Part shown: positions 1,990 through 33,033 of the stretch, piece after piece
Layout of the letters: each line of letters begins with the position of its first letter
Position numbering within the stretch: the first letter of the stretch is position 1
Source of the DNA: Actinomycetota bacterium
Lineage (GTDB): Bacteria; Actinomycetota; Actinomycetes; Propionibacteriales; Propionibacteriaceae
Length of the DNA stretch: 35,969 nt
Assembly (NCBI GenBank): GCA_016213595.1
Contig: JACRAA010000041.1
Coordinates: forward strand, 1-35,969
Reading direction: 5' to 3'
Program-made: the position numbers and the translations under genes
The notes under the pieces: model-generated
The model's input: only the letters and a program-made list of their open reading frames with translations
Database searches by the model: none
Told to the model about the DNA's origin: nothing

Positions 1990-1996
1990 CGGCTCG

Positions 1997-3265
1997 TCAG
2001 CGCAGCCGGTACAGCACCTCGCCGGCGTTCTCGACGACGATCGTGTCCGGGTCGGCCTTCCAGGCCTCGACGTCGATGCTCGCCGGGTCCAGGTAGCCGA
2101 GGTTGACGCTCTCGCAGACCTCGCGCGAGATGCCGGTCGCGAGCGTGACCCGGATCCGGTTCGTCTCCACGCGCGACACCGGGTCGTACGTCCCGGCGCC
2201 GCGGACGTGTGTCGAGTGCGCGAGCACGCCCTTCGGCACGTCCTGGAACCGGTCCCACTGGCTCGTGAAGTACTCGATGCAGTGGTAGCCGATGTCGTAG
2301 ATCTCGTGGTGGGTCTCGGACACCTCGGTCACATGTGGCGCGTAGATGACCACCTCACCACCGTCGGCCATGGCCGGCTGCGCCTTGTAGCAGCCCTTCG
2401 CCGCGGTCCAGATGTCCTCGTAGCGGGTGGGCATCATCGCGAGCATCCGCTGGAACGGGGTGTCGGTGTAGACGATGTGGCTCTCGGCGGCGATCTCGGC
2501 GGTGGCCGTCCAGGCGTCCTCGGAGGTGCCGAACGCCGCAGCCTCGAGCAGCCCGCTGCCCGACTCGACGACGAGGCACAGCGCGAGCCGTTCGGTCGGG
2601 ATGAGCTGCGCCCCGGCGTTGATGATCGCCCGTACCGGCGTGACCCCGGTGACCCCGATCATCTTCTCGACGCCGATCAGCGCACCGACCCAGTGCGACA
2701 GGTCGATGATGTCGTGCGTCGCGCAGCCCGGGATGAAGTACTTGTTGCCCCCGGAGATCCCGGCCACCTCGTGGGGGAACACCGGGCCGATGACGATGGC
2801 GTAGTCGCTCTCGACCACCCGGCGGTTGATCTCGACCTCGACGGCCTCGCTCATCGCGCCCAGGCTGAGCTCGGAGATCTGCTCTGCGCTGAGCCGGCCC
2901 ACGGACACGATCTGGCTGGACCGCGCCCACTCGTGGTTGACGATCTCCAGCCCTGGGTACAGCGCGTCCAGCCCACCCGGCTCCGCGCCGAACATCCGCT
3001 CGATCTCATGCGGCTCCATGTAGGAGTGGGTCCCGAGCGCGATGATCGCGGTCAGCTTCCCGACCCGACCGATGAGAGCCTTGTGGACGATCCCCATGAC
3101 GAGCGGCATCGGCATGCTCCGGGTCCCGTCCGGCACCACGAGCACCACGTCCTTGCCGTCGAGCGGCAGGGGAGCGAGGTTGCGGTTCACGAAGTCGGCG
3201 AGCTCGGCGTCCGACAGGTGCTCGTGCGCTCCGCCGATGACCTCTAGCGGAATCTGTGTCGTCAC
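1997..3265 (-). CDS. LarA-like nickel-dependent racemase/epimerase family protein (DUF2088 / Lar_N domain)
   Basis: The translation carries LarA-type motifs: VLVVPDGTRSMP, IALGTHS, PHEVAGISGGNKYFIPG, THDIIDLSH. Start placed at GTG 3265, preceded by AGGAGGA (reverse complement of tcctcct at 3269-3275). The 51 upstream codons of the track ORF have no support. Confidence 0.75.
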   Translation of the reverse strand: MTTQIPLEVIGGAHEHLSDAELADFVNRNLAPLPLDGKDVVLVVPDGTRSMPMPLVMGIVHKALIGRVGKLTAIIALGTHSYMEPHEIERMFGAEPGGLDALYPGLEIVNHEWARSSQIVSVGRLSAEQISELSLGAMSEAVEVEINRRVVESDYAIVIGPVFPHEVAGISGGNKYFIPGCATHDIIDLSHWVGALIGVEKMIGVTGVTPVRAIINAGAQLIPTERLALCLVVESGSGLLEAAAFGTSEDAWTATAEIAAESHIVYTDTPFQRMLAMMPTRYEDIWTAAKGCYKAQPAMADGGEVVIYAPHVTEVSETHHEIYDIGYHCIEYFTSQWDRFQDVPKGVLAHSTHVRGAGTYDPVSRVETNRIRVTLATGISREVCESVNLGYLDPASIDVEAWKADPDTIVVENAGEVLYRLR

Positions 3266-10086: not shown

Positions 10087-11510
10087 TGCCTCTCGTCGCC
10101 GGGGTGGACACGTCCACCCAGTCCTGCAAGGTCGTCGTCTGCGACGCCGAGACGGGTGAGGTGGTGCGGCAGGGCCGTGCGACCCACCCGGACGGGACGG
10201 AGGTCGCCCCGGCGCACTGGTGGCACGCCCTGCAGTCGGCGCTCGCGGAGGCGGGAGGCCTGGACGACGTCGCGGCGGTCTCCGTCGGAGGCCAGCAGCA
10301 CGGCATGGTGGCGCTCGACGAGAAGGGCGAGGTCGTCCGCGACGCGCTGCTCTGGAACGACACCCGTTCGGCCGCAGCCGCCGCGGAGCTGGTCTCCGAG
10401 CTCGGCCCCGACCACTGGGCCGCGGTGACCGGGTCGGTCCCCGTCGCCTCGTACACCGTGACCAAGCTGCGCTGGCTGCGCGACGCCGAGCCGACCCACG
10501 CCTCCCGGGTGGCGGCGGTCGCCCTGCCGCATGACTGGGTCTCCTGGCGTCTCGCCGGCTACGGCCCGGCGGCCGACTCTCCGCTCGGTCCGGACCTCGC
10601 CGCGCTCGCCACCGACCGGTCGGACGCCTCCGGGACCGGGTACTTCGACGCGACGACGAACACGTACGACCGTGACCTGCTCGTCCGTGCGCTCGGTCAC
10701 GACGTCGTGCTGCCCCGCGTCGCCTCGCCGGCGGAGGTCATCGGCACCGTCTACGGAACGGCCTGCCCGATCGGCCCTGGCGCCGGGGACAACGCCGCGG
10801 CCGCGCTCGGGCTGGGTCTCGGGGTGGGCGACGTCTCGCTGTCGCTCGGCACCTCCGGTGTGGTCGCCGCGGTGACGGCCGTACAGAGCCACGACCGGTC
10901 CGGCCTCGTCAGCGGCTTCGCGGACGCGACCGGCCACTTCCTGCCCCTCGCGTGCACGCTCAACGCCGCGAGGGTCCTCGATGCGGCCGCCGAGCTCCTC
11001 GACGTCGACCTTGACGAGCTGTCCGACCTCGCGCTGTCGGCCCCCTCAGGTGCGGGCGGGCTCGTGCTCGTCCCGTACCTGGAGGGCGAGCGGACGCCGA
11101 ACCTGCCCGACGCGACCGGCTCACTGCACGGGCTCCGGCTCGAGACGGCCTCTCGCGCGTACCTGGCGCGGGCGTTCGTCGAGGGGCTGCTGTGCGGACA
11201 GGCGGACGGGCTCGCGGCGCTCGAGAGCCAGGGGCTCGTGGCGACCCGGGTCCTCCTCGTGGGCGGGGCCGCGAAGTCGCGCGCCGTGCGCGAGATCGCG
11301 CCCCGGGTGCTCGGCGTCCCGGTGGTCGTGCCGTCGCCCGGCGAGTACGTCGCGCTAGGCGCGGCGAGGCAGGCCGCCTGGGTTCTCGCGGGAACGGCCG
11401 AGCCTCCCTCGTGGCGGCGGGCGGAGGAGGAACACTACGACGGAGCGATCGACCAGGCGCTGCGCAGCCGCTACGCCTCGGCGCGCAGCTCCTTCCTCGC
11501 CCGACCCTGA
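10086..11510 (+). CDS. xylB: Xylulokinase
   Basis: FGGY kinase N-terminus [18 protein letters not shown], then GGQQHGMV and [11 protein letters not shown]. The ATG overlaps the xylA stop (TGATG). Confidence 0.9.
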
Positions 11511-11520
11511 AGGGACCGCC

Positions 11521-12462
11521 ATGGAGAAGGTGCGCATCGGCACCGGTGCTGTGACCGCCGAGATCTGGACGCTGGGAGCTGCTCTCAACGCCGTCTGGGT
11601 CCCGGACCGGGACGGCACGCCTGCCGATGTCGTGCTCGGACATGCCGACGAGGCGGCACGGCGGGCCGGGACGGCCTACCTGGGCGAGGTGGTCGGCCCG
11701 TACGGGAACCGCATCCGCGATGCGCGGTTCACGCTCGACGGACGGTCGTACCAGCTGGAGCAGAACTTCCTCGGGAGGCACTCGCTGCACTCGGGCAGCG
11801 CAGGCTTCCACCGTCAGGAGTGGACACTGGCCGATGTCGCTCCCGACCAGGTACGCCTCGAGCTCACCTGGTCCGACGTGACCGGCGAGCACCCAGGTCC
11901 GGTCCACGCAGCCGTCACCTACACGGCGGCGGGCGACACCCTGGCGTACGACATCGACGTGACCACCGACGTACCGACGGTCGTCAACGTCATCGCCCAC
12001 CCCTACGTCAACCTTGCCGGGGGCGGCACAGTCGAGGACCACGTGCTGAGCATCGACGCCGACGCGTACCTCCCTGTCGACGACGAGCTCATCCCCACCA
12101 CCGAGGCGCCTGCCCCGGTCGCGGGCAGGTTCGACCTTCGCCGGGGCCGGACAGTCGCCGACATCGTCGCCCAGGGCGGCCTCGACCACTGCTTCGTCCT
12201 CAACGGGACGGGACTGCGCCACGTCGCCTCGCTGGTGGACCCCTCGTCGGGGCGGCGCCTGGACATCGCCACCGACGAGCCGGGACTGCAGGTCTTCGAC
12301 GGCAGGGGACTCGACGCCGTCGGTCACCGTGCGTACGGCGGACTGGCCATGGAGACCCAGCAGTTCCCCGACGCCCCGAACCGTCCGGACTTCCCCAGCA
12401 CCGTGCTGCGGCCCGGCGAGCGCCGCACGTCGCACACGCTCTGGACCTTCTCCGCCGGCTGA
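11521..12462 (+). CDS. galM: Aldose 1-epimerase (galactose mutarotase family)
   Basis: GNRIRDARFTLDGRSYQLEQN, HSGSAGFHRQEW, HPYVNL, LDHCF and AMETQQFPDAPN are typical mutarotase motifs. Confidence 0.85.
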   Translation: MEKVRIGTGAVTAEIWTLGAALNAVWVPDRDGTPADVVLGHADEAARRAGTAYLGEVVGPYGNRIRDARFTLDGRSYQLEQNFLGRHSLHSGSAGFHRQEWTLADVAPDQVRLELTWSDVTGEHPGPVHAAVTYTAAGDTLAYDIDVTTDVPTVVNVIAHPYVNLAGGGTVEDHVLSIDADAYLPVDDELIPTTEAPAPVAGRFDLRRGRTVADIVAQGGLDHCFVLNGTGLRHVASLVDPSSGRRLDIATDEPGLQVFDGRGLDAVGHRAYGGLAMETQQFPDAPNRPDFPSTVLRPGERRTSHTLWTFSAG

Positions 12463-19273: not shown

Positions 19274-20158
19274 CTAGCGATGCTTGTCGGCCCGCCGGTG
19301 CTTGCGACGCTCCTCGGTGGCGTCACCGAGCAGCTCGGCGAGCGACAGGGGTCGTCGCCCGGTGAGGCGTTCGACGGCGTCGGTCACCGCAGACAGCTCG
19401 CCGGAGGCGATGGCGCTGTACGTGCTGACCCAGGCGTCGAGCTGCCACTGGGGCGCGCCGTACGACGCGCGAGACGCGTAGGCAGCCTCGAGGGTCTCGT
19501 TCTCGAACCGGTACGGACGGCCGGTGACGCGTCTCATGACCTCCGTGGCCTCGGCGAGGGTGAGCGCCTCCGGGCCGGTCAGGTCGTACGTGGCAGCGAC
19601 GTGGTCCTGGGGCGAGCGGAGCACCTCCGAGGCGACGCGGGCGACGTCCGCCCGTGCGACGCCGCCGAACCGGCCGTCGCCGGCGGGACCCCGGATGACG
19701 CCGCGCTCGTCGGCGAACAGCGGGAGGAAGTCGAGGTACAGGGAGTCGCGCAGGAACGTCCACCCCATGCCCGACAAGCGCAGCAGCTGCTCCGTGTGCC
19801 AGTGGTCGCGCGCGAGCGTGAACGTGGCGTCCGGGGCCGCGCCGAGGAACGACGTGTAGACGACGTGTCCGACTCCGGCGTCCGTGGCCGCCTGGACGAA
19901 CGTGCGGTGCTGTACGAGACGGTCGGCGCTCTCGGCGCCGGACACCATGAAGAGCAGGTCGACGCCCTCGAGGGCCTTCCGGGCGGACGGGCCATCTCCG
20001 TACGACGCCTGGACGACGTCACCCTCGAGGCCTGCCGGGAGCCTGGCGGGATCGCGGACCACGAGCCGAAGGGCTTGACCGGCGTCCTGCAGAGCGCGGG
20101 CGACGAGTCCGCCCACATGTCCTGTCGCGCCGGTGACGGCGATGAGTGTTCGCGCCAT
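19274..20158 (-). CDS. NmrA-like / SDR-family NAD(P)H-binding protein
   Basis: MARTLIAVTGATGHVGGLVARAL Rossmann motif. SD GAGGAG lies upstream. Confidence 0.8.
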   Translation of the reverse strand: MARTLIAVTGATGHVGGLVARALQDAGQALRLVVRDPARLPAGLEGDVVQASYGDGPSARKALEGVDLLFMVSGAESADRLVQHRTFVQAATDAGVGHVVYTSFLGAAPDATFTLARDHWHTEQLLRLSGMGWTFLRDSLYLDFLPLFADERGVIRGPAGDGRFGGVARADVARVASEVLRSPQDHVAATYDLTGPEALTLAEATEVMRRVTGRPYRFENETLEAAYASRASYGAPQWQLDAWVSTYSAIASGELSAVTDAVERLTGRRPLSLAELLGDATEERRKHRRADKHR

Positions 20159-20192
20159 GGAGGTCTCCTCGCCGGCCTTCAGCTGGCCGGGG

Positions 20193-20263
20193 AGCGGATG
20201 ACGGGAATCGAACCCGCAGGGCCAGCTTGGACGGCTGGGGCTCTGCCATTGAGCTCCATCCGC
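20193..20263 (-). tRNA. tRNA-Gly(UCC)-like gene with non-canonical G8 and G33; CCA not encoded
   Basis: Reverse strand: GCGGATG GA GCTC AATGGCA GAGC C CCAGC CGTCCAA GCTGG CCCT GCGGG TTCGATT CCCGT CATCCGC T. The cloverleaf is complete. The anticodon loop is C-G-TCC-A-A. Confidence 0.75.
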
Positions 20264-20522
20264 GCGGCCCGAGGGGCCGGGACGACTGTACCGGACGAAG
20301 ACGCCCCGCCACGAGACAGGTCCGCCGGGGATGGATGGCTCCCCGACCGCTCATCGGCACGGATGAGGGGCTTGTCAAGGGTCCAGTGAGGACCGGCGGG
20401 CATGCGTGAAGCGTGCGACCAGGGTTCCTGCCAGCCCATCCTGGACTCGCCCCTGGACGCACGCTCCACTCCAGCAGAGGTGCTCCGTGCTACTGGGTCA
20501 CGGTGTTCTCACTGCAGGCCGA

Positions 20523-22251: not shown

Positions 22252-23700
22252 CTAGCCCGGCGGGCCGTACCGGGGGATGATGATGCCCGCCAGGGCCAGC
22301 CACGTGGCGAAGACGAACCACGCGCAGAGGACGGCGAAGACCGCGATCCGTACGTTCGGGTTCGGGAAGGTACGTGTGGCCAGCTGCTCGAAGCCGCGTG
22401 CAACGAAGTAGGCGACGGGGAGCAGCATCGGCAGGACATATCGACCCTGCGGCTGGAAGTCCTGCGTGTACGAGTGGTAGATGCTCAACGCGACAGGGAT
22501 GGGGATCGCGACGAGCAGCACGCCGTGGAGCAGCCCCTGGTCCCAGGACGTCAGCCCGGGCGCGGAGAGCTCCAGATCCTCGGCGCCGGACGTGCCCTGC
22601 TCACCGGCCTTCGTCCCGCGCCGTGCACCCCACCTCACCACGCCGGGGACCAGCGCGCCCATCCCGGCGACCGTGATGGCGGCGTAGCCGCCGTAGATCG
22701 CCGCCGGCAGGCGCACCGTCTTGTAGCCGAACAGGCCGACGGAGCTCATGCCGGTGATGACGATCCAGCCGTGGTGAACGAGCATGTCCCAGAGGCCCCA
22801 GCCCTTGGCGAGCGCGGACGAGGCGCCCGGCTTGGCGAAGTCCCGGCCGTACAGCATCCCCTGCTCGCCGGACGTCCTGAGCCCCAGGAAGTCCCCGTTG
22901 TACAGGTAGGCGTTCCGGATGAACCACCAGCCGGCCAGGACGAGCACGACGGCGCAGATCATCCCCAGCTGGACCAGGGTCTGCCGCAGGTGCGCGGGGC
23001 GTTCGCCGACGGGAGCGCGGCGCCAGGCGCGGAGGCGGTCGGCCAGGTAGACGACGACGCTGAGAAGCACGAACCCGTACGCCGTGAAGTAGGACAGGAG
23101 GCACACGGAGATCGCCAGCCCCAGCAGCAGGACGTTCCCCGTCCCCCACCCGTCACGGAGCCCTCGCAGCCAGGCGTAGATGATCAGCGCGGCCGAGAAG
23201 ATCGCCAGGGAGTCGCTGTTGAGGTAGCAGCTGAGGAAGGCCAACTGGGGCAGAAGCGCGATGAAGGCGACGAAGAACCAGCGCCAGATCCCGTGGAGCA
23301 GCCTGCGGGAGATGAGGATGCTCAGCGCCACCGTGCCGGTCCCGAAGATCACGGAGGCGAACCGTGATGCCAGGTACAGGACGTGACCGTCCGTGCTGAA
23401 CAGGCTCGCGATGGAACGCAGCAACGCCGCGACGAGCGCCGCCAGGATCGGCTCGAAGGCGTACGAGGTGCCCCAGATCGCGTCGCGGGTCGCGGGATCC
23501 GTGCCCGACGGGATGACGTGGCGCTCCGAGATGTACCGCACGAGGCGGTACCGCATGTTCTCGTCCGGGGCCGCGTCGAACGGGACAGTCCAGGCCCAGG
23601 TGGTGTAGAGCACGAAGCAGGCGACGATGAAGGTCACCGGGAGCAGCCGCTCGACGGACGAGGCGAGCCGTTCGGAGCCCCTCGTCGCTCCGGTCGTCAC
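22252..23700 (-). CDS. GT-C fold glycosyltransferase, ArnT/PMT_2-like (family 39/83-like), polytopic membrane protein
   Basis: There are many TM segments. The first extracytoplasmic loop carries PDENMRYRL, an ArnT-type DExRY motif. GTG 23700 overlaps the gtrA-like stop (GTGA). The 779-aa track ORF is an in-frame artefact upstream of this start. Confidence 0.75.
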   Translation of the reverse strand: MTTGATRGSERLASSVERLLPVTFIVACFVLYTTWAWTVPFDAAPDENMRYRLVRYISERHVIPSGTDPATRDAIWGTSYAFEPILAALVAALLRSIASLFSTDGHVLYLASRFASVIFGTGTVALSILISRRLLHGIWRWFFVAFIALLPQLAFLSCYLNSDSLAIFSAALIIYAWLRGLRDGWGTGNVLLLGLAISVCLLSYFTAYGFVLLSVVVYLADRLRAWRRAPVGERPAHLRQTLVQLGMICAVVLVLAGWWFIRNAYLYNGDFLGLRTSGEQGMLYGRDFAKPGASSALAKGWGLWDMLVHHGWIVITGMSSVGLFGYKTVRLPAAIYGGYAAITVAGMGALVPGVVRWGARRGTKAGEQGTSGAEDLELSAPGLTSWDQGLLHGVLLVAIPIPVALSIYHSYTQDFQPQGRYVLPMLLPVAYFVARGFEQLATRTFPNPNVRIAVFAVLCAWFVFATWLALAGIIIPRYGPPG

Positions 23701-24134
23701 CCCCGCCTCGTCGTCGTCGGCGTTCGCGTCGCGGCGCGCCGGAAGGAGAAGAACCTGTGTCCGAGGAAGCTGCCGATCGCGACCACGACGGTGATGACGA
23801 CCTGCGCGAGCACGGGGTTCATCCGGAGCCCCTCGACGAACAGCGGGGCGGCGGCGATGGGGGCGATCATGCCCGAGCCCCACACGACCATGAACCGGAG
23901 CAGGTCTCCGCGGAGCGACCCGGTCGAGTGGAAGACGAAGCGCCGGTACAGCGGGAAGGCGACGGGTATCGGCGCGACCTGGGAGAACACCGTCGCCAGC
24001 ATGTAGTGCCAGCCGAGGCGCAGGCCCAGCGCGACCATCGCCCAGCTCAGGACGGAGACCCCGCCAGCGGCCATCAGGTACCGCACCTCTGTGCGCCGGA
24101 GGACCGAGGCAGCCTGGTCCAGGCGCATGTTCAT
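23697..24134 (-). CDS. GtrA family protein (putative lipid-linked sugar translocase)
   Basis: About 145 aa with four hydrophobic segments. RYLMAAGGVSVLSW...FPLYRRFVFH...GSFLGHRFFSF is typical of GtrA. Confidence 0.75.
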   Translation of the reverse strand: MNMRLDQAASVLRRTEVRYLMAAGGVSVLSWAMVALGLRLGWHYMLATVFSQVAPIPVAFPLYRRFVFHSTGSLRGDLLRFMVVWGSGMIAPIAAAPLFVEGLRMNPVLAQVVITVVVAIGSFLGHRFFSFRRAATRTPTTTRRG

Positions 24135-24211
24135 GTGTAGAGCGTAACTGCCGGCTGAGGCCCGGCTGTGACTGCTGGCTTCGGTCGGCCCGGCGGGTAA
24201 GGTCTCCACCC

Positions 24212-25351
24212 GTGGCCCGCCTGCTGTTCTCCGTCCCGTACGTCACCGGATCCGAGTCGACGTACGTCGCCCAGGCGATGGCCTCCGACCATTGGCAGGG
24301 CGACGGACCCTTCACGAGACGCGCCGTGGCCCTGCTGCAGCAGCTCACCGCCGCGAGGGGAGTCATCCTCACGACCTCCTGTACGCACGCGCTCGAGCTC
24401 GCGGCCGTCCTCGTCGGGTTGAAGCCCGGCGACGAGGTGATCTGCCCGAGCTTCACGTTCTCGTCGACCGCGACCGCGATCGTCTCCAGGGGCGCCGTGC
24501 CCGTCTTCGTCGACATCGAGCCACGCACCCTGAACATCGACCCGGCAGCCGCGGAGGCCGCGATCACGCTGAGGACGAAGGCGATGTTCATCCTCCACTA
24601 CGGAGGCGTGGCCGCTGACCTCGACCAGCTCCTCGCGATCGCGGACCGGTACGGGCTGGCGCTCGTGGAGGACAACGCCCACGGGCTGGGCGCGAGGTTC
24701 CGTGGCCGTCACCTCGGCACGTTCGGCACGTTGGGGACGCAGAGCTTCCACGAGACGAAGAACGTCGCGATGGGGGAGGGCGGCGCGTTGCTCGTCCAGG
24801 ATCCCGAGCTCCTGGCTCGCGCTGAGATCGTGCGCGACAAGGGTACGAACCGCGCGCGGTTCTGGCGGGGCGAGATCGACAAGTACACGTGGGTGGACGA
24901 AGGCTCGTCGTACCTGCCGAGCGACATCCTGGCGGCGGTGCTCTGCGCGCAGCTCGAGGGGTTCGACGACATCCAGGCGAAGCGGATGCACGTCTGGGAC
25001 CGCTACGACACGGAGCTCGCCGACTGGGCGGGCCGGTCGGGCGTCGACCAGATGTACGTCCCGCCGGAACGTTCCCAGCCGGCGCACCTGTACGTCCTGA
25101 TGATGCCCTCCGCCGAGGACCAGCACGGGCTGATCCAGCACCTGCGCGAACGCGACGTCGTCGCGACGTTCCACTACCAGCCGCTCGACCAGTCGCCCGC
25201 CGGCCTGGCCTTCGGGCGCGCCCCCGAGCCGTGCACGGTCACGTACGACCGGGCCGCCCGGCTGGTCAGGCTGCCGGTCTACGCGAGGATGACGGACGCC
25301 GACATCGACCGCGTCATCGAGGGCGTGACCTCGTACACCCCGTGCTGCTGA
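24212..25351 (+). CDS. DegT/DnrJ/EryC1/StrS aminotransferase, WecE-like (dTDP-4-amino-4,6-dideoxyhexose transaminase)
   Basis: It aligns by eye along its whole length with E. coli WecE: GDGPFTRR, PSFTFSSTA, FHETKN (the PLP lysine), REKGTNR-like RDKGTNRARFWRGEIDKYTWVDEGSSYLPSD, and FHYQPL. Confidence 0.85.
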   Translation: MARLLFSVPYVTGSESTYVAQAMASDHWQGDGPFTRRAVALLQQLTAARGVILTTSCTHALELAAVLVGLKPGDEVICPSFTFSSTATAIVSRGAVPVFVDIEPRTLNIDPAAAEAAITLRTKAMFILHYGGVAADLDQLLAIADRYGLALVEDNAHGLGARFRGRHLGTFGTLGTQSFHETKNVAMGEGGALLVQDPELLARAEIVRDKGTNRARFWRGEIDKYTWVDEGSSYLPSDILAAVLCAQLEGFDDIQAKRMHVWDRYDTELADWAGRSGVDQMYVPPERSQPAHLYVLMMPSAEDQHGLIQHLRERDVVATFHYQPLDQSPAGLAFGRAPEPCTVTYDRAARLVRLPVYARMTDADIDRVIEGVTSYTPCC

Positions 25352-25361
25352 CAGCCATGTA

Positions 25362-25377
25362 GGGCCGGCGCCGGCCC
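25362..25377. terminator. GC-rich palindrome GGGCCGGCGCCGGCCC between convergent genes; candidate bidirectional terminator
   Basis: Perfect 16-bp palindrome in the 46-bp gap between the wecE-like and GT2 stops. No U-tract. Confidence 0.45.
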
Positions 25378-25397
25378 CGGAGGATGCGCCGCCGTGG

Positions 25398-26417
25398 TCA
25401 CTGCGAGTCGGCCTGGCGTCTCCGCTGGGCGGCCGCCACAGCGTCGCGCTCAGCCTCGGAGCTGCTCGCCACCGCGGGTGCCGACGGAAGACCGACCTGG
25501 CGTCCTGTGTCCCCCTGGATCCGTACCACGTAGGTAGGGCGGTTCTGCGAGCTCATGTACAGCCGGCCCACGTAGTTGCCGATCACGCCCAGGCTCAGCA
25601 TCGTCAGGCCGGAGAAGAGCGACGTCATGGCGGCCTGGGAGGCCCAGCCGGCAGGGGTCGGGTCGGAGACGAAGTAGCTGATGATCACGTAGACGAACAG
25701 CCCGAGCCCCAGGAGGCAGGCGAAGTACCCGGCGACCGTCACGAACCGCAGCGCCTGGGTGGTGCCGGTGGTCATGTCCCAGGCGAGGCGTACCAGGGAG
25801 GACCAGGTGTAGCCCGAGCGGCCGTGGGTGCGTGTGTCCATCTTCACCGGCACGGCGATGACGCCGTTCGTCGACCATCCCAGCAGGACGTCGATGTACG
25901 CGGCGCCCGCCACCGAGCCGAACCCCTCCCGGAGGTCGGTGCGCATCGCGACGAACGACGAGAACAGCCGCGCGTTGGCGAGGCCCATCCGCTCCATGAC
26001 CCGCTTCACGCCCTGGCTCGTCGCGTTGCGCCACACGTTGTGCTCCTCGTCGACGGCGTTGCCGTAGACGACGTCGACGAGCGGGTCCGCCAGCGGCTCC
26101 AGCAGGAGGTGGATCTCCTCCGGGCGGTGCTGGAGGTCGTCGTCCATGAGGACGGTCACCTCGTACCGCGCGCGGTCGATGCCGGCGAGGCTGGCGTGGT
26201 GCTGTCCGTAGTTGCGCCGGAGGAGGACGGCCGTCACGCGGGGGTCCTCGATCTCGAGGCTCCGTGCGACGGCGTACGTGTCGTCCGGCGAGCCGTCGAC
26301 GATGAGCAGGATCTCGTACGCCTCCGCCACGTCGGCCAGTGACGCGTGCAACCTGGCGACGAGCTCGGGCAGACTGTCGCGGGAGCGGTAGCAGGGGATG
26401 ACGACGGAGACGTTCAC
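25398..26417 (-). CDS. Family 2 glycosyltransferase, polyprenyl-phosphate sugar synthase type (ArnC/GtrB/PpgS-like)
   Basis: VSVVIPCYRS...LLIVDGSPDDT...RNYGQHHA...MDDDLQHRPEE plus two C-terminal TM helices. GTG start at 26417. Confidence 0.85.
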   Translation of the reverse strand: MNVSVVIPCYRSRDSLPELVARLHASLADVAEAYEILLIVDGSPDDTYAVARSLEIEDPRVTAVLLRRNYGQHHASLAGIDRARYEVTVLMDDDLQHRPEEIHLLLEPLADPLVDVVYGNAVDEEHNVWRNATSQGVKRVMERMGLANARLFSSFVAMRTDLREGFGSVAGAAYIDVLLGWSTNGVIAVPVKMDTRTHGRSGYTWSSLVRLAWDMTTGTTQALRFVTVAGYFACLLGLGLFVYVIISYFVSDPTPAGWASQAAMTSLFSGLTMLSLGVIGNYVGRLYMSSQNRPTYVVRIQGDTGRQVGLPSAPAVASSSEAERDAVAAAQRRRQADSQ

Positions 26418-26452
26418 AGCTAGGGATTATCCCCGACGGTCTCCTGTCCGTC

Positions 26453-26674
26453 ATGCACCTGGCTGGTCGAGCGGGCACGAGCCGCGTCGACCGGCGTCCC
26501 CTCACCGAGGCGTACGCCTCGCCGTCCGTCTTCACCGGCACCTACCAGGTACCGCAGGCGAGCTACTTCCTCCTGGGGGACAACCGCGACGTCTCCAGCG
26601 ACGGCAGGAGTGGCGTGAGCCGTACGTGGGCGGGGCTGCGGTACGAGGACGCCTCCTCGGCGCACGCGCACTGA
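26453..26674 (+). pseudogene. Signal peptidase I (LepB) C-terminal relic
   Basis: VDRRPLTEAYASPSVFTGTYQVPQASYFLLGDNRDVSSDGR matches the LepB box E region (VP.G.YF.LGDNR..S.DSR). The N-terminal catalytic Ser/Lys boxes are absent, because that space is occupied by the GT2 gene on the other strand. Confidence 0.55.
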
Positions 26675-26682
26675 GCCCTCGC

Positions 26683-27609
26683 TCAGAGTCCCCTGCTCGC
26701 GGCGCGCCGGATGCGCCCGTCGCCGTACCGCACCCCGCCGGCGGCTCGCTGGGCTATCGCCGGCCAGACGCAGACCGCCCGTTCGAGGACCCAGAGGGGA
26801 GCCCAGAGGGCTGCGGTGACGGGGAAGACGCGCCCGCCTCCAGCACGGCGCCGGCCGACCTCGGCGAGCCCGATAGCGACCAGCGCCAGCAGGCCGAGCG
26901 CTCGCGGTCTGTGCCGCAAGCCCACGATGACGGGAAGCAGCGCAGCCTCGACGACCAGGCGTGACGGTTGGGCGAAGTCGTCGTAGGCCTGCCGGACGCG
27001 CTGGCTGACGAAGTGAGCAGCAGTGGGCGGCCGCCGGCCGACGTACAGGTCGTCGGCCAGCTCCACGACACCGCCGCGCGCCCCGACCGTACGGATGAGC
27101 TCCAGGTTCTCGAACAGCACGTCCCCGTCGTACCCCTCCGGCAGGACGATGCCCCTGCGGACGATCAGGGTGCCCGGGTAGTCGCTGCCGAGAGCCCGGT
27201 TGAGCAGCTGCCGGCCGGTGTCCCAGCGCGCATGCCACGGCCAGTCCGTGAACACGTTCTGCGGCGCGACGAGGTCGGCCTGCTCCAGCCGCCGGAGACC
27301 CTCTGCGAGCGCGTCCCGCTCGTACCGCACGTCGTCGTCGGCGATCACGACAGCCTCATGCCGGGCGAGAGTGAGACCCGTCATCACTCCTTTGACCTTG
27401 CCGTTGCGTCCAGGCCAGTCCCCAGGCGGGAGGACGCGAGCGTACGGGGACCACACCTGGAGGTGCTGGGCGAACAGGTCCGCCGGGGAGCCGTCGACGA
27501 CGGTCACGTCGACGAGGCCGGCGAGCCCGCGCAGGTAGTCCGTGAGGTCGTCGAGGTCGGCGTCGTCCTGCCACCGGGGCGGCAGGACGTACTCGGCCGT
27601 CGCCGTCAT
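26683..27609 (-). CDS. GT-A fold (family 2-like) glycosyltransferase with C-terminal membrane helices
   Basis: VTVVDGSP, VIADDDV (DXD motif) and C-terminal hydrophobic segments. ATG 27609 overlaps the DUF1989 stop (ATGA). The track ORF upstream of that point is unsupported. Confidence 0.7.
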   Translation of the reverse strand: MTATAEYVLPPRWQDDADLDDLTDYLRGLAGLVDVTVVDGSPADLFAQHLQVWSPYARVLPPGDWPGRNGKVKGVMTGLTLARHEAVVIADDDVRYERDALAEGLRRLEQADLVAPQNVFTDWPWHARWDTGRQLLNRALGSDYPGTLIVRRGIVLPEGYDGDVLFENLELIRTVGARGGVVELADDLYVGRRPPTAAHFVSQRVRQAYDDFAQPSRLVVEAALLPVIVGLRHRPRALGLLALVAIGLAEVGRRRAGGGRVFPVTAALWAPLWVLERAVCVWPAIAQRAAGGVRYGDGRIRRAASRGL

Positions 27610-28214
27610 GTCGAAGGACCGTCCTCCTGTCGGGGCACGATCGCGTAGTCGACAGGCTTGCAGATCCCGCCGTTTGACTTCTCTGCGGAACAGGCCGTGA
27701 GGGCTACGAAGAGGTCCATCTGCGCCTCGACGACGAACCGGTCTCCTGGCTTCGACCGGGGTGGGTCGATGTGCATGATCCCGTTGTCGTCCGTCCAGAC
27801 GTTCATGAAGATGTTGAACGAGGTGCCGATCTGGTCGTCGGTGACACCGTACGGAGCCAGCCCTGTCGCGAGGTTCTCCAGGCAGCTGGGGTGCCGCTCC
27901 CCGTGGAGCTCCGGGTAGAGGAGGTCGAACGTCTGCTGGCTGCACGGTGTGAGCGTGAAGTCGTGCCGGCCGCAGTCGTCCTCGATGATCCGGAACATCG
28001 GGCGCGACCTGTTGCTGTACAGCAGGTCGTTGGTCGTCTGGTAGATGCAGTTGGCGTAGTCGATCGTCCTGCCGCTGGACAGCCATTCACGGGTGTCGTC
28101 CGCGCTCACGGCGAACAGGTCGCTGACCTGGCCACCGGTCGTGTCGACGACGACGAGGAGGTCACCCTCCTTCAGCTCGAACCCCGCGCCGGTCTGCGGT
28201 TCCAGCCTGTTCAT
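27606..28214 (-). CDS. DUF1989 (urea carboxylase-associated / YcgI-like) family protein
   Basis: GGQVSDLFAV...LYSNRSRPMFRIIEDDCGRHDF...HPSCLENL...FNIFMNV...KPGD...ACSAEKSNGG is the DUF1989 pattern as I recall it. The ATG overlaps the upstream stop (ATGA at 28211-28214). Confidence 0.75.
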   Translation of the reverse strand: MNRLEPQTGAGFELKEGDLLVVVDTTGGQVSDLFAVSADDTREWLSSGRTIDYANCIYQTTNDLLYSNRSRPMFRIIEDDCGRHDFTLTPCSQQTFDLLYPELHGERHPSCLENLATGLAPYGVTDDQIGTSFNIFMNVWTDDNGIMHIDPPRSKPGDRFVVEAQMDLFVALTACSAEKSNGGICKPVDYAIVPRQEDGPST

Positions 28215-28957
28215 GCAGCCTCGTTTCCTGGTGGCGGATCATCAGAGGTGGTCAGGTCGACAGGAGGCTGCCAGCCGTCCGGGACAGCCCGGCCCGAGTA
28301 CTGCCGCGCCTCGGAGATGGAGCCGTGGTCGGCCACCATGGGGTTCACATACCCCTGGAGACGTACGTCGCGGCGACGGATGGTGTCGCGCATCCTCTCG
28401 TACCGTCCGGACGCTCGCAGGGCCTCGAACTGCCGGTGCAGGTTGAAGACCAGGACCGGCCAGGGGGTGCGGCGGGCGATGCGCGAGGCCTGCGGATGCA
28501 TCCCGATGACGAAGAAGGCGACCCCGGCCAGGCTGAACGCGAAGTGCGGGTTCGACGGGTCGGCCGAGACGCTCGTATCCCACTCCTGGGACTCGCCCTG
28601 GTCCAGGTCATGGAGCAGGCTGAGCTGGCGCCACAGCAGCGCCTCGAACTCCGCCTCGGAGGAGACGACCGGGCCGCGGAACACCGCCACGAACGAGACG
28701 AAGGTGTCGTCGTCGGCCTCCAGCCCCGTGGTCCTCGCGTACGAGGCGAGCGCCTCGTACAGCTGCGTACTGTCCGGGTCGGCGAGCTCGTCGACCATCT
28801 CGATGTGTGCGGACCGACGGGTGAACACCGAGCGCGCGCCCAGGCAGGGGTAGTCGTCTCTGAGCACCAACGCGCGCAGAGACTCCGCCATGTGCTCGGG
28901 AGTGAGGGCAGGCGTGGTCACGTCGCGCTCATTGCCTGACGCGAATGTGCGATTCAC
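28211..28957 (-). CDS. YqcI/YcgG family protein (family of heme-dependent N-hydroxylase GntA)
   Basis: DYPCLGARSVF, FVSFVAVF, FEALLWRQL, NPHFAFSLAGVAFFVIGMHPQASRIARR, LVFNLHRQF, IRRRD and SEARQYSG. Start at GTG 28957 after GGGAGGAGG. Confidence 0.8.
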   Translation of the reverse strand: MNRTFASGNERDVTTPALTPEHMAESLRALVLRDDYPCLGARSVFTRRSAHIEMVDELADPDSTQLYEALASYARTTGLEADDDTFVSFVAVFRGPVVSSEAEFEALLWRQLSLLHDLDQGESQEWDTSVSADPSNPHFAFSLAGVAFFVIGMHPQASRIARRTPWPVLVFNLHRQFEALRASGRYERMRDTIRRRDVRLQGYVNPMVADHGSISEARQYSGRAVPDGWQPPVDLTTSDDPPPGNEAA

Positions 28958-29129
28958 CCGCCCTCCTCCCTTTCCTGGAACATCTCCGGCTAGCCCCCAG
29001 ATACCCCCACCCCTTCCCAGCAAAACGGTTTCGGGCGCTGCGTCGGGGCCTGCACGACCGTGAAGGGGCGTTCAGCGGAGAGCGCTCACACGGGACATCA
29101 CGAGGGCTTGGGGATGGGAGAGGTGGGTA

Positions 29130-30851
29130 TTGAAGGCCGTGCACACATCGAAGGAGCCTCGGCCCGAGCCGAGCGAAGAAGCCGCTGTCTCCGTGAAGGA
29201 GCTGCGCCGCATCGCGACCGATGACTTCGGGATCGCCGACCTGCGTCAAGGCCAGGTCGACGCGATGGTCGCAGCGACGCAGGGCCGGGACGTGCTCGCC
29301 GTCATGCCCACCGGGTACGGCAAGTCGGCGATCTACGAGGTGCTCGGAGCCAGCGAGGAGGCCCTGACGCTCGTGATCTCGCCCCTGATCGCGCTGCAGC
29401 GCGACCAGGTACGCGCCCTGGGTGAGGCGCCCGGCGCTCAGCGAGCCGTAGCCCTCAACTCGTCCTTGGGCGTCACAGCTGAGGAGCAGCTGTGGCAGGA
29501 CGCCACGGCCCAGCAGGTCAGCTACCTGTTCCTGTCGCCCGAGCAGCTCGCCAACGACGCCGTACTGGACCGTCTGCGAGCTCTGAAGATCGGCCGGGTG
29601 GCAGTCGACGAGGCCCACTGCGTCTCGGCCTGGGGCCATGACTTCCGGCCCGACTACCTCGCCATCGGCTCGGTCGTCGAGCAGCTGGGCCATCCGGTGG
29701 TGATCGCTCTGACAGCCACGGCTGCTCCGCCCGTACGGGAGGAGATCATCGCGCGCCTGGGCCTGCGTGATCCCGTCGTGGTCGTCCGGGGCTTCGACCG
29801 GCCGAACCTCGAGCTCGCTGTCCACCGCTACACCAGCGGGCAGGAGAAGGAGGCCGCACTCCTGCGCGAGGCCGTCGAGCGAGCTCAGGCCGCGGCCGGC
29901 TCGGGAGTCGGGCTGGTGTACGTCGCTCGTCGTCGGCAGACGGAGGACTACGCCGCAGCCCTTCGGGACCAGGGGGTTCGGGCGTACGCCTATCACGCAG
30001 GCTTGCCGACGAAGGAGCGCAACGGCGCGCAGAAGGCGTTCGACGACGGCGAGCTGGACGTCGTCGTCGCGACGAGCGCCTTCGGCATGGGCATCGACCA
30101 CCCACACGTCCGGTTCGTCCTGCACGACTCGCCGCCGGGCTCCGTGGACGACTACTACCAGGAGATCGGCCGGGCGGGCAGGGATGGGGAGCCGGCCGCT
30201 GTGACCCTCCACTACCGCCCGGAGGACCTGTCGCTCCGCAGGTTCTTCTCGTCGAAGAAACTGCCGGAGGAGGACCTGCGTGCCTGCCTGCAGGCGCTGG
30301 GGTCGGGCGCCGACACCCTCGCCGCGGTCCGTCGCGTGACGGGTCTCGGACCACGCGCGGCCTCCGCCGCCGTCAACCTGCTGGTCCTCACCGGCGCCCT
30401 GAACCGTCAGGCAGGGAAGCTGCACCCCATCGGCAGCCGCGATCCGCGGCAGGTGCTCGCCGAGGCCTCTCGTCTCGTGGACGCGCGCGAACGGATAGAG
30501 CGGTCCCGCGTGGAGATGATGCGAGGGTACGCGGAGACTCAGGGCTGCCGTCGGGAGTTCCTCCTCAGCTACTTCGGGGAGGACTTCGCGGGGCCGTGCG
30601 GCAGCTGCGACAACTGCCTCTCGGGCGCGACCAAGGCGCACCAGAGCAGCGTCAGCTCCCCGTCGAGCGCCGGTGAGGACGGCTTCACTCCGGGAGCGCA
30701 GGTCGTGCACGAGAAGTGGGCCGAGGGCACCGTGATGCGCGTCGAGGACGACCGGATCACCGTCTTCTTCGAGGAGCAGGGCTATCGCACGCTCGACCGC
30801 GAGCTAGTGGCCGACAGGGGGATCGTTGCTGTTCGAGAGCCGGGCGAGTGA
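29130..30851 (+). CDS. RecQ family ATP-dependent DNA helicase with C-terminal Tudor-like tail
   Basis: MPTGYGKS, DEAHCVSAWGHDFRPDY, ATSAFGMGIDHP, QEIGRAGRDG and the Zn-binding CRREFLLSYFGE...CGSCDNC. The TTG start is uncertain. Confidence 0.85.
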   Translation: MKAVHTSKEPRPEPSEEAAVSVKELRRIATDDFGIADLRQGQVDAMVAATQGRDVLAVMPTGYGKSAIYEVLGASEEALTLVISPLIALQRDQVRALGEAPGAQRAVALNSSLGVTAEEQLWQDATAQQVSYLFLSPEQLANDAVLDRLRALKIGRVAVDEAHCVSAWGHDFRPDYLAIGSVVEQLGHPVVIALTATAAPPVREEIIARLGLRDPVVVVRGFDRPNLELAVHRYTSGQEKEAALLREAVERAQAAAGSGVGLVYVARRRQTEDYAAALRDQGVRAYAYHAGLPTKERNGAQKAFDDGELDVVVATSAFGMGIDHPHVRFVLHDSPPGSVDDYYQEIGRAGRDGEPAAVTLHYRPEDLSLRRFFSSKKLPEEDLRACLQALGSGADTLAAVRRVTGLGPRAASAAVNLLVLTGALNRQAGKLHPIGSRDPRQVLAEASRLVDARERIERSRVEMMRGYAETQGCRREFLLSYFGEDFAGPCGSCDNCLSGATKAHQSSVSSPSSAGEDGFTPGAQVVHEKWAEGTVMRVEDDRITVFFEEQGYRTLDRELVADRGIVAVREPGE

Positions 30852-30931: not shown

Positions 30932-31025
30932 GTACGGTTGGCTCGTGTAAAGCAAGCAGATGGGTCTCCCACGAGGACCCTTCATGTCCGTCTCGTCGTA
31001 CCGGCGGCTGAGGGTAAGGAGCAGG

Positions 31026-31751
31026 ATGTCGCAGCATCCCCTTTCTGAGCGTGGCGCGATGACTCTGTCCGAGTTCGCTCGCCAGGCGAACGGTCCGAGC
31101 CTCGAGTCCACGCGGCTCGAGCTGGGCCTGAGCCTTGTCGTGGAGCTGGTGGACGGGTGCGACCAAGCGGGCGTGATGACGATGACGCGACAGGGCCCGC
31201 AGACGACCACGGCAACCTCAGACCTCGTCTACCGGTCCGACCGGCTGCAGTACGAGCTGGAGGAGGGACCGGCCCTCGACTCCTTCCGGCTGCTGTCCAC
31301 GGTGATGAGTGGTGCCATCGGGCGGGACCGGCGCTGGCCGCGCTGGGGACCCGCCGTTGCTGGGCGTTACGGCGTGGGTTCCGTCCTGTCCGTCGTGCTC
31401 TCGGGCCGGGGAGCTCCCTTCGGCGTGCTGAACCTGTACGGAGTCCGCGGTGACGCCTTCAACGACTCCGAGATCCTGGTCGCCGAGTCGCTGGCCGGTC
31501 TCCTCGCCGTCGTCCTGGCTGAAGGTCGGGACATCGACAACCTGGAGCGCGCGGTGGCCAGCCGGACAGCGATCGGACAGGCCGAAGGCATCCTCATGGA
31601 GCGCCACAAGCTGAGCGCCGAGGAAGCCTTCGATGTCCTGCGTCGCGCCTCGCAGAGCAGGAATGTGAAGCTCGTCACCGTTGCGGAGGAGCTCATCACT
31701 ACTGGGCAGCTGAACGCCAGGCCGACACGGCAACAGCTTCGGGGGCTGTGA
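31026..31751 (+). CDS. GAF domain + ANTAR domain RNA-binding regulator
   Basis: GAF-like LQYELEEGPALDS...GSVLSVVL...GVLNLY. The ANTAR domain IGQAEGILMERHKLSAEEAFDVLRRASQSRNVKLVTVAEELI is canonical. ATG follows AAGGAGCAGG. Confidence 0.85.
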   Translation: MSQHPLSERGAMTLSEFARQANGPSLESTRLELGLSLVVELVDGCDQAGVMTMTRQGPQTTTATSDLVYRSDRLQYELEEGPALDSFRLLSTVMSGAIGRDRRWPRWGPAVAGRYGVGSVLSVVLSGRGAPFGVLNLYGVRGDAFNDSEILVAESLAGLLAVVLAEGRDIDNLERAVASRTAIGQAEGILMERHKLSAEEAFDVLRRASQSRNVKLVTVAEELITTGQLNARPTRQQLRGL

Positions 31752-32001
31752 CGCGTCCTCTGACGACGTCCCACCGAGCCTGGCGCTGACGATGTCTGCA
31801 TGCCGTTTCCCGCTGCGTCACCGCTGATCCCCGTGCCCTGATGTCGGGTAGGTTGGGAAGCGCCGGATCTTCTGGCCGGTGATGCAGGTGTGGTCTGTGT
31901 GGAAGTCGGCCAGTCCTAAGGCGGACCGGCCACCGGGGGTACGCCCTCATCGCAAGTGTCGTGCTGCGGTTGGAAGAACGTGGAGGGTGCCCGTGAGCGC
32001 C

Positions 32002-32715
32002 ATGGATACCGGGATCGACCAGCTGACCATCGCTGTCGCGAGCATGAGCGGCCTGCTCGTGAGCCACGAAGCGGCGGCGGCAGCCGTCGAGAAGCTCGCT
32101 CAGGTCGCGCGGGACATGGTCCCGTCGGCGGTCGGGGCGGGGGCTTCCTTGATGGACGACAAGGGCAGCAGAATCAGCACCGCGACCACCGACCGGATCG
32201 CCATGATCGCTGACGAGCTGCAGTACGAGCTGGGCCAGGGGCCGTGCATCAGCGCGTGGGCCACAAGCTCTGTGCAGAGGCTGGACGACACCGAGTCCGA
32301 CACGATCTGGTCGCGCTGGTCCAGCGGGGCCCGAGATCTGGGGATCCGCTCCGTGCTGAGCGCCCCACTGGTCTTCCGAGGCGACGTCATCGGTGCCCTC
32401 AAGGTCTACAGCACGTCCGTCTCCGCGTTCGACGAGGACGATGAGCGCCGGCTGGTCCTTCTGTCCGCCGCGGCAGCGACGTTGCTCGGCGTGGCGAGCG
32501 GACCCGAGGCTCCCCGCAAGCTCTCGGAGACCCTTGCCGCCGCCCTGTCCGCCCGGAACGCTGTGGAGACCGCAACGGGCATCCTCATGGAGCGTCACCA
32601 GATGGATCTGGAGGCCGCACGGTACAGGCTCATCGAGCTGTCGAGGACCAGCGCTGAACCCCTGGCCGATGTCGCTCGGAGCGTACTCGACCGGTCATCG
32701 GACACCTCACGCTAG
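32002..32715 (+). CDS. GAF domain + ANTAR domain regulator (diverged paralogue)
   Basis: ELQYELGQGPCISAW, SVLSAPL and GALKVYS in the GAF part. The ANTAR part is VETATGILMERHQMDLEAARYRLIELSRTSAEPLADVARSVL. GTG 31993 is an alternative start. Confidence 0.8.
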   Translation: MDTGIDQLTIAVASMSGLLVSHEAAAAAVEKLAQVARDMVPSAVGAGASLMDDKGSRISTATTDRIAMIADELQYELGQGPCISAWATSSVQRLDDTESDTIWSRWSSGARDLGIRSVLSAPLVFRGDVIGALKVYSTSVSAFDEDDERRLVLLSAAAATLLGVASGPEAPRKLSETLAAALSARNAVETATGILMERHQMDLEAARYRLIELSRTSAEPLADVARSVLDRSSDTSR

Positions 32716-32724
32716 GGAGGGGGG

Positions 32725-33033
32725 GTGGACGACGCCGACATCGGCCGGGAACAGGCACGGCTCGTACGACTGGCCATCGTCCGTGCCCACCTGGAGCTGG
32801 AGGACGTGTGGCTGCACTTCTTCAGCCTGGGCGGAGATGTGGGAGCGATGGAGGTGGAGGCCTACCTGCATCATGCCTTCGTCCTGCCCAGGCTGCAGCG
32901 TGACCTGCTCGCCCACGCGGTCAACGAGCTGATCGACCACAGGCCCAGCATGAAGGCCCCCTACGCGACCGACATCTCAGAGGCAGAGACCTCGTCGAAC
33001 CCGGCCGGCGACGACGACGCGCAGGAGTCGTGA
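32725..33033 (+). CDS. Small acidic hypothetical protein (102 aa) downstream of the ANTAR pair
   Basis: GTG follows GGGAGGGGGG, 10 nt after the upstream stop. High GC3. No family recognised. Confidence 0.6.
   Translation: MDDADIGREQARLVRLAIVRAHLELEDVWLHFFSLGGDVGAMEVEAYLHHAFVLPRLQRDLLAHAVNELIDHRPSMKAPYATDISEAETSSNPAGDDDAQES

Follow-up and report, generated by a model that had tools for sequence, protein, structure and literature searches.

The 35,969-nt stretch of actinobacterial DNA analysed here (contig JACRAA010000041.1, hereafter the window; 69.5% G+C) carries three consecutive minus-strand genes, designated A, B and C, which encode a YqcI/YcgG-family protein, a DUF1989 protein and a glycosyltransferase (GT). 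The best explanation of the evidence is that this trio is one operon of a Propionibacteriaceae-like actinobacterium and that its products act in one pathway. Comparison with related loci (given L-numbers below) indicated that genes A and B belong to an almost obligate pair, that this pair recurs beside the same family of GT in several gene orders and once in a fused gene, and that at other loci the GT is accompanied by a second, unrelated oxygenase cassette. An initial annotation, made from the window alone, had read the trio as a candidate link between guanidine-type nitrogen chemistry and an envelope GT. Its interpretation is partly supported by the analysis; we, too, infer both the guanidino chemistry and the kind of acceptor that the GT uses.

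The three open reading frames (ORFs) show the codon-position G+C bias typical of real genes, and the ATGA stop/start overlaps that were described initially were confirmed at both junctions (Table 1). Identical 4-nt overlaps occur in the closest relatives, L001, L002, L169 and L170 (85-90% identity), and short gaps replace them in the more distant trios of L006 and L007. Taken mechanically, the longest ORF for gene A would open at TTG 29023, but orthologues of gene A are 247-248 amino acids (aa) long and a strong Shine-Dalgarno-like GGGAGGAGG lies 4 nt before GTG 28957, so this codon is favoured as the start, as the initial annotation had it. A consensus scan found no promoter-like or terminator-like site within the trio. 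The sole promoter-like match in 26300-29250, where shuffled sequences gave an expectation of 0.0, is at 26454-26426, and this consensus match suggests that the next gene, which encodes an ArnC-like protein, is transcribed on its own. No known RNA element, including an ANTAR target, was identified in the leader of the trio: it had no Rfam match above gathering thresholds, hits up to E≤10 were noise, and it showed no inverted repeats.

A neighbourhood census was taken in two sets of loci, with the presence of every family counted by tblastn: 80 species-representative genome loci anchored on the GT, all with actinobacterial titles or G+C, and 80 metagenome loci anchored on the DUF1989 subfamily of gene B. 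YcgG stands directly upstream of DUF1989 in 59 of the 61 metagenome loci with enough upstream sequence, and same-strand upstream in 74 of all 80; the pair is also found in L086, L087 and L168. YcgG and YcgI-type DUF1989 (both COG names occur in source annotations) are therefore described here as an almost obligate two-enzyme pair. When all flanking ORFs were clustered, the GT was the only recurrent neighbour of the pair to form a large cluster. It is recognised by PWHARWD and QRVRQAYD motifs and lies within about 0.5 kb of the pair in 20/80 DUF1989-anchored loci, and in 8/28 of those with at least 1.3 kb on both flanks. In the GT-anchored set the pair adjoins the GT in four loci of 80 (L006, L007, L055, L068), and complete trios are present in these four and in L001, L002, L169 and L170. 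Gaps between GT and pair are mostly 41-220 bp. Among the 20 metagenome loci the GT is convergent to the pair in 11, divergent in four, downstream in three and upstream on the same strand in two, indicating that the grouping noticed in the window is not confined to this genome. One assembly in the comparison, titled Vibrio cholerae strain 35D, contributed a contig (L075, WNZI01000017.1) of 70.5% G+C with an actinobacterial-type GT at 57% identity, which is almost certainly a contaminant.

A gene fusion adds to this picture. In L171 (JGI 3300049006, Ga0494392_0007175) a 602-aa ORF at 1281-3089, P0378, joins a GT of this family (residues 11-326) and a YqcI/YcgG domain with an FPC motif (residues 393-593); codon bias runs on through the linker, and a DUF1989 gene comes next with an 8-nt overlap. 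Because several gene orders are conserved and the GT::YcgG fusion exists, genes A, B and C appear to be functionally tied.

The GT has a second and commoner partner. A heme-oxygenase-like diiron protein (HDO, PF14518) is present in 48 of the 80 GT-anchored loci, adjacent to the GT on the same strand in 44 of them, and 43 of the 48 also carry a CDGSH [2Fe-2S] iron-sulfur protein. The typical order is HDO > GT > CDGSH with overlapping genes, for example in L003 (8926-11168) and L004 (10001-12275). No examined locus contains both this cassette and YcgG plus DUF1989. In a neighbour-joining tree of 102 GTs, constructed without support values, the YcgG-type GTs formed four or more groups with HDO-type GTs interspersed between them, and by pairwise identity several YcgG-type GTs were just as close to an HDO-type GT as to YcgG-type GTs of the other groups. 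YcgG-YcgI and HDO with CDGSH are therefore regarded here as two oxygenase cassettes that can take each other's place beside this GT. An apparent HDO::GT fusion (P0375) was set aside, as its Arg-rich linker looks like a frameshift. In Raineyella antarctica (L003) the cassette is followed at 11193-12418, on the same strand and with short gaps, by genes for an O6-alkylguanine-DNA alkyltransferase and a 3-methyladenine glycosylase; this adjacency, seen at that locus only, may be fortuitous or may hint at an alkylating product.

The GT-associated HDO matched only SznF (8e-7), RohS and HrmI by sequence in the PDB. SznF and HrmI are N-oxygenases, and the HDO retains every Glu, His and Asp aligned to the SznF motifs SEAS, DEYG...H, TE and EH..D..H, which are presumably the diiron ligands. 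RohS is an N-oxygenase (PMC13133933), and in the chalkophomycin pathway the YqcI/YcgG protein ChmN stands in for the HDO domain of SznF (bioRxiv 10.1101/2024.01.24.577118). Since the commoner partner of the GT matches only N-oxygenases in the PDB, the idea of N-oxygenation by the trio receives indirect support.

The families named in the initial annotation were all recovered by profile searches, the GT just above threshold. Gene A matches PF08892 (YqcI_YcgG) with 175.9 bits, against a Pfam gathering score of 27. The Cys of its YPC motif, C38, aligns with Cys44 of AglA and shows conservation of at least 95% in 61 homologues paired with DUF1989. Cys44 is the heme thiolate ligand in the AglA structure, and all characterised YqcI/YcgG enzymes are guanidine N-hydroxylases (PMC12866846). 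The AlphaFold2 (AF2) model of gene A is of moderate quality (pLDDT 66.8, pTM 0.69); its significant Foldseek matches in the PDB are five AglA structures only (prob 1.0, TM 0.52-0.58), and the modelled fold is of the AglA "sandwich" type. Nitric oxide synthase (NOS) heme domains dominate the matches after AglA, and these are not significant (E 0.2-1.3, TM about 0.2).

Gene A also scores 280.1 bits with the NCBIfam GntA model NF041366, whose equivalog cut-off is 145, and PGAP names its orthologues "guanitoxin biosynthesis ... GntA"; the name stands in NCBI annotation on the stand-alone actinobacterial YcgG orthologues P0243, P0269, P0317, P0325, P0333 and P0356. Among the window genes scanned, no other guanitoxin-pathway gene scored above its cut-off, the only match of the GntC model being the WecE-like transaminase (30 bits against 415), and in related loci the gene A orthologues have other neighbours. 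A guanitoxin function was rejected for gene A on the absence of this pathway context. We consider that the name has been over-propagated, because no other guanitoxin genes accompany it among those scanned, that the cut-off of NF041366 appears too permissive, and that the naming is a systematic mis-annotation which deserves to be flagged.

Gene B matches PF09347 (DUF1989) with 170.9 bits (gathering score 27). A profile of 20 of its homologues found 3oru (5e-25) and the structures 9q59 (9e-23) and 9q5a of the trimethylamine N-oxide (TMAO) demethylase Tdm in the PDB, the latter two at about 1e-22. Residues C91, C111 and C175 align with the Tdm zinc cysteines C263, C279 and C343, and H108 and E178 align with H276 and D346, the proposed iron ligands of Tdm (residue roles from PMC12560246); a spacing of 64 residues within the metal site is identical in the two proteins. 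These five residues are invariant in the 20 homologues, as are C81, H84, D85 and C185. The initial annotation had connected the DUF1989 family with carboxyguanidine deiminase subunits; a deiminase of the CgdAB type was rejected for gene B. Its scores lie below the NCBIfam cut-offs for the urea-amidolyase-associated proteins (UAAP2, 99 against 284.7; UAAP1, 73.1 against 205.95), no second DUF1989 or urea/guanidine carboxylase was found among the window genes scanned, and neighbour clustering of 82 loci revealed no second DUF1989. The score with the Tdm model is likewise low (83.7 bits, cut-off 1100), but the Tdm site fits the metal site of gene B at least as well as the carboxyguanidine-deiminase type does.

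Gene C is a marginal member of two Pfam families, Glyco_transf_21 (26.7 bits, cut-off 21.7) and Glycos_transf_2 (24.9 bits, cut-off 23.3), and sequence searches against the PDB gave only marginal matches (E>0.06). Its AF2 model is confident (pLDDT 92.9) and matches BcsA, hyaluronan synthases (HAS), PcManGT, ArnC, GtrB and DPMS in Foldseek with prob 1.0, so that the GT-A fold is confirmed at the level of the model. Invariant residues are N69-G-K71, D91-D92-D93, E167 (in FENLEL) and Q203-R-V-R-Q207, which we take to fit the NGK / DxD / acid / QxxRW-like pattern of GT2/GT21 enzymes. Among curated families the bacteriohopanetetrol GlcNAc transferase HpnI comes closest, matching 25 of 26 members of the gene C family (best E 3.5e-8), but gene C, at 15.2 bits against an equivalog cut-off of 310, is not one of its members. 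By sequence the family is sharply bounded, with 290 clusters (50% identity) at E≤1e-30 and 968 at E≤1e-3 among 1.84 billion representatives. C-terminal membrane helices had been proposed for this protein; the AF2 model predicts three C-terminal helices (215-230, 235-255 and 266-289), but their hydropathy is weak, with a best 19-residue Kyte-Doolittle mean of 1.37, compared with 1.3 to about 2.1 (maximum 2.08) in homologues.

Taken with the gene structure, families, conserved catalytic and metal residues, linkage, fusion and mutually exclusive cassettes described above, these features suggest a general scheme, for and against which we find the balance about even, in which A would oxygenate a nitrogen, B would process the product and a membrane GT would glycosylate. 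Gene A would hydroxylate an N-H of a guanidino or amino compound, and gene B might then act on the N-oxygenated group by C-N cleavage or rearrangement, a step proposed by parallel with the action of Tdm on an N-oxide or of carboxyguanidine deiminase on the carbon of a guanidine. Gene C, which its C-terminal helices would hold at the membrane, would glycosylate the substrate or product of the A/B unit, or alternatively would join the compound made by that unit to a lipid acceptor. A more specific version can be put forward only tentatively: an undescribed actinobacterial pathway might couple oxygenation of a nitrogen in a compound derived from an amino acid to a membrane GT. Its outcome might be a glycoconjugate or glycolipid that carries an N-oxygenated group, or a change in the envelope set off by a reactive N-oxide species, and two unrelated cassettes would have supplied the oxygenation repeatedly.

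In this scheme we infer N-hydroxylation, the role of the DUF1989 protein, the sequence of reactions, and which substrate, sugar donor and product take part. Several observations weigh against it. The window genes scanned yielded neither a ferredoxin nor a reductase to serve the heme enzyme. Within the flank, a GT of the gene C family is missing from about 70% of YcgG-YcgI pairs, and 28/80 GT loci (23 of them with full flanks) have neither cassette within 7 kb; in these the partners may be elsewhere in the genome or not needed. The single GT::YcgG fusion could in principle be an assembly error, and the GT tree is without support values. The C-terminal helices of gene C are amphipathic or weakly hydrophobic in the model, making membrane association likely and no firmer than that. 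In parallel with HDO and CDGSH, the DUF1989 protein could be a redox or metal partner instead of a second catalyst. Finally, a P450 resembling CYP152-type fatty-acid peroxygenases is found beside the GT or close to it in 14 loci (10 Micromonospora, 3 Leifsonia and L007; e.g. L065 3697-4944, L011 5742-6977, L007 2777-3976), which, with the action of the nearest GT families on lipid hydroxyls, points to C-hydroxylated lipid acceptors and away from nitrogen chemistry.

These last points can be assembled into a different explanation, unlikely in our view, in which the heme enzyme hydroxylates a carbon in a fatty acid or membrane lipid, a glycolipid arises when the GT attaches a sugar to the new hydroxyl, and DUF1989 serves YcgG as its dedicated metal or redox partner, as CDGSH would serve the HDO. 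Both cassettes would then consist of an oxygenase and a small Cys-rich metalloprotein, and the fold of the GT, like that of membrane GT2 enzymes, and its nearest families, HpnI and the GT21 ceramide glucosyltransferase, would be accounted for. The known chemistry of the families points the other way, however. Every characterised YqcI/YcgG enzyme acts on guanidine nitrogen, the characterised DUF1989 proteins (Tdm, CgdAB) are catalysts and not electron carriers, and the fatty-acid enzyme UndA is not among the PDB matches of the HDO, which are N-oxygenases. The P450 itself (528 bits with the NCBIfam model, cut-off 600) accompanies both cassettes and does not replace them: it occurs with HDO in Leifsonia, with YcgG and DUF1989 in Propionicimonas, and without HDO in Micromonospora.

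It is rather improbable that the YcgG-YcgI pair degrades or scavenges a guanidine-type compound autonomously and that the GT, though often nearby, works separately from it. Most pairs lack the GT, as in L086 and L087, the DUF1989 relatives CgdAB and Tdm are catabolic, and the GT is mostly convergent to the pair and hence not co-transcribed with it. Yet the GT adjoins the pair in four arrangements, at the short distances given above and in lineages whose GTs are 34-56% identical, far above chance for a roughly single-copy gene; it is fused to YcgG in one locus and recruits a second, unrelated oxygenase cassette in others. Neighbour clustering, moreover, found no transporter or carboxylase conserved around the pair.

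Regulation offers a further possibility, one to which we attach little weight: the pair might make or remove a reactive N-oxide-type signal (e.g. NO/HNO from N-hydroxyarginine), with a GAF-ANTAR antiterminator sensing it and controlling envelope GTs. In Pedococcus dokdonensis (L168, LT629711, 7500-14349) the genes Hemerythrin > YcgG > DUF1989 > GAF-ANTAR are translationally coupled by overlaps and are followed by a run of GT4, GT4, GT28-like and GT7C-like genes, and a hemerythrin gene lies upstream of the pair in five more loci (L086, L092, L098, L099, L102). The two GAF-ANTAR genes of the window, together with a 105-aa ORF, retain synteny with the trio in L001, L002, L169 and L170, and further GAF-ANTAR genes are found near the pair or GT in L026, L054, L068, L072, L087 and L102. 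However, such genes occur in only about 6% of loci, the leader of the trio yielded no known RNA element, the NOS matches that might recall such a signal fall short of significance, and nothing links the GT2-type enzyme to regulation.

Downstream of the trio, 22252-26417 is plausibly a lipid-linked amino-sugar transfer module (Table 1), and its position directly beside the trio had been pointed out in the initial annotation. That the trio and the ArnC-like, GtrA-like and WecE-like proteins together put an N-oxygenated or guanidino sugar on the envelope is hardly credible, and the link was rejected: although the two modules are 265 bp apart in the window and 2 kb apart in the 90%-identical L169, where three other genes separate them, the three module proteins had no match in any of 167 related loci, L001 (85%) and L006 (81%) lack the module and carry other genes downstream of the trio, the ArnC-like gene is preceded by its own promoter-like site, and no co-occurrence of the modules beyond this lineage was already the trend. 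The adjacency is lineage-specific.

Table 1. Positions of the trio, its signals and neighbouring features in the window.
Feature	Position	Strand	Details	Basis
Gene A, YqcI/YcgG-family thiolate-heme monooxygenase	28211..28957	-	248 aa, GTG start	PF08892 1.2e-51
Gene B, YcgI-type DUF1989 metalloprotein	27606..28214	-	202 aa	PF09347 2.5e-50
Gene C, GT-A glycosyltransferase (GT2/GT21-like), discrete actinobacterial family	26683..27609	-	308 aa	
ATGA overlap, gene A stop / gene B start	28211..28214	-		sequence
ATGA overlap, gene B stop / gene C start	27606..27609	-		sequence
Shine-Dalgarno-like GGGAGGAGG	28962..28970	-	4 nt upstream of GTG 28957	sequence
Promoter-like site	26426..26454	-	before next gene (ArnC-like GT2)	consensus match only
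ArnC-like GT2	25398-26417		downstream of trio	
WecE-type transaminase	24212-25351		passes dTDP-4-amino-4,6-dideoxygalactose transaminase cut-off	
GtrA-like protein	23697-24209			
Large ORF without family match	22252-about 23700		membrane-like	sequence reading
GAF-ANTAR regulators	30960-31751 and 31879-32715	+	upstream of trio, beyond divergent RecQ gene	
ORF	32716-33033		105 aa	

Other genes recur around the GT. A group II pyridoxal-phosphate (PLP) amino-acid decarboxylase adjoins it in 9/20 metagenome loci with pair and GT (e.g. L166 5582-7042, L140 2457-3917, L134 354-1847) and is the next most frequent neighbour; it resembles diaminobutyrate (DABA) decarboxylase, at a score far below the cut-off. 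Hydroxamate siderophore pathways open with a decarboxylase and an N-hydroxylase. Other recurrent genes near the GT encode a class I methyltransferase and an FdhA-like Zn-dehydrogenase. Elsewhere in the window a minus-strand tRNA gene (20193-20263; Rfam, 51.7 bits) occupies the 5' part of the mechanical ORF at 19274-20350, so the NmrA-like gene there must start downstream of it.

Each of the three proteins is a new member of a known family, and their combination, like the alternation of cassettes, was not found described. In the literature searched, no paper joins YqcI/YcgG with DUF1989, or HDO with CDGSH or a GT, in agreement with the initial annotation, which was aware of no account of the arrangement. 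Nothing yet shows unusual chemistry. YqcI/YcgG proteins are known from six antibiotic and toxin pathways only, and for most of the family, the Bacillus namesakes among them, no role is known; stand-alone DUF1989 proteins are in the same position. A large branch of the one family is now seen to be near-obligately paired with a large branch of the other, and three "hypothetical" annotations become one testable pathway, for which cultured hosts exist (Pedococcus dokdonensis, Raineyella antarctica, Leifsonia and Micromonospora). If N-oxygenation is indeed coupled to glycosylation, this would add a new kind of modification of the envelope or of a small molecule and another natural example, the second, of heme and diiron N-oxygenases changing places, and it would provide the first physiological role for the large "housekeeping" branch of YqcI/YcgG and DUF1989.

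Among known systems, gene A shares its Pfam family, the AglA fold (by its model) and the (F/Y)PC cysteine with AglA, GntA, ChmN, DcsA, AmbT and Mhr24. It is only about 20% identical to AglA (31 bits), however, and lies outside any natural-product cluster, and its type is nearly always paired with DUF1989, which is reported for none of those enzymes. Gene B belongs to the same DUF1989 fold family as Tdm (DUF1989 plus GCV_T) and the heteromer CgdAB, both of which cleave C-N bonds in small nitrogen-rich or N-oxygenated molecules, and it keeps the three zinc cysteines and the His/acid pair of Tdm at the same spacing. Unlike Tdm, which has about 760 aa and a C-terminal GCV_T domain, it is a single 202-aa domain; unlike CgdAB, it has no paralogous partner and no urea/guanidine carboxylase among the window genes scanned; and C81, H84 and C185 are additional invariant residues. 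Gene C shares a predicted GT-A fold, the DxD motif, a Q-R-x-R-Q motif at the QxxRW position and helices C-terminal to the catalytic domain with HpnI, GT21 ceramide glucosyltransferase and the membrane GT2 enzymes DPMS, GtrB, ArnC and PcManGT. It differs from them in falling far below family cut-offs (HpnI, 15 against 310) within a bounded family of its own, and in its weakly hydrophobic helices.

At the level of pathways, the closest parallels are those in which an N-hydroxylase is exchanged or followed by a dedicated second enzyme. The clusters in which this alternation and the proposed order of steps in the trio have counterparts differ in content: here there is no cupin domain, NRPS (nonribosomal peptide synthetase) or N-nitrosation context, the HDO is stand-alone with its own CDGSH, and the constant partner is a glycosyltransferase; similarly, the second enzyme is a DUF1989 protein and not an arginase or an acyltransferase, and siderophore synthetase and cycloserine genes are missing. 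Diiron HDO and YqcI/YcgG fill the same position across organisms in the chalkophomycin/graminine pathways (SznF HDO and ChmN), just as they alternate here beside the GT. In DcsA-DcsB (D-cycloserine) and DesA-DesB, as proposed for A and B, a second enzyme takes up the N-hydroxy product of an N-hydroxylase, and the PLP decarboxylase beside the module in nine loci recalls the first steps of hydroxamate siderophore pathways.

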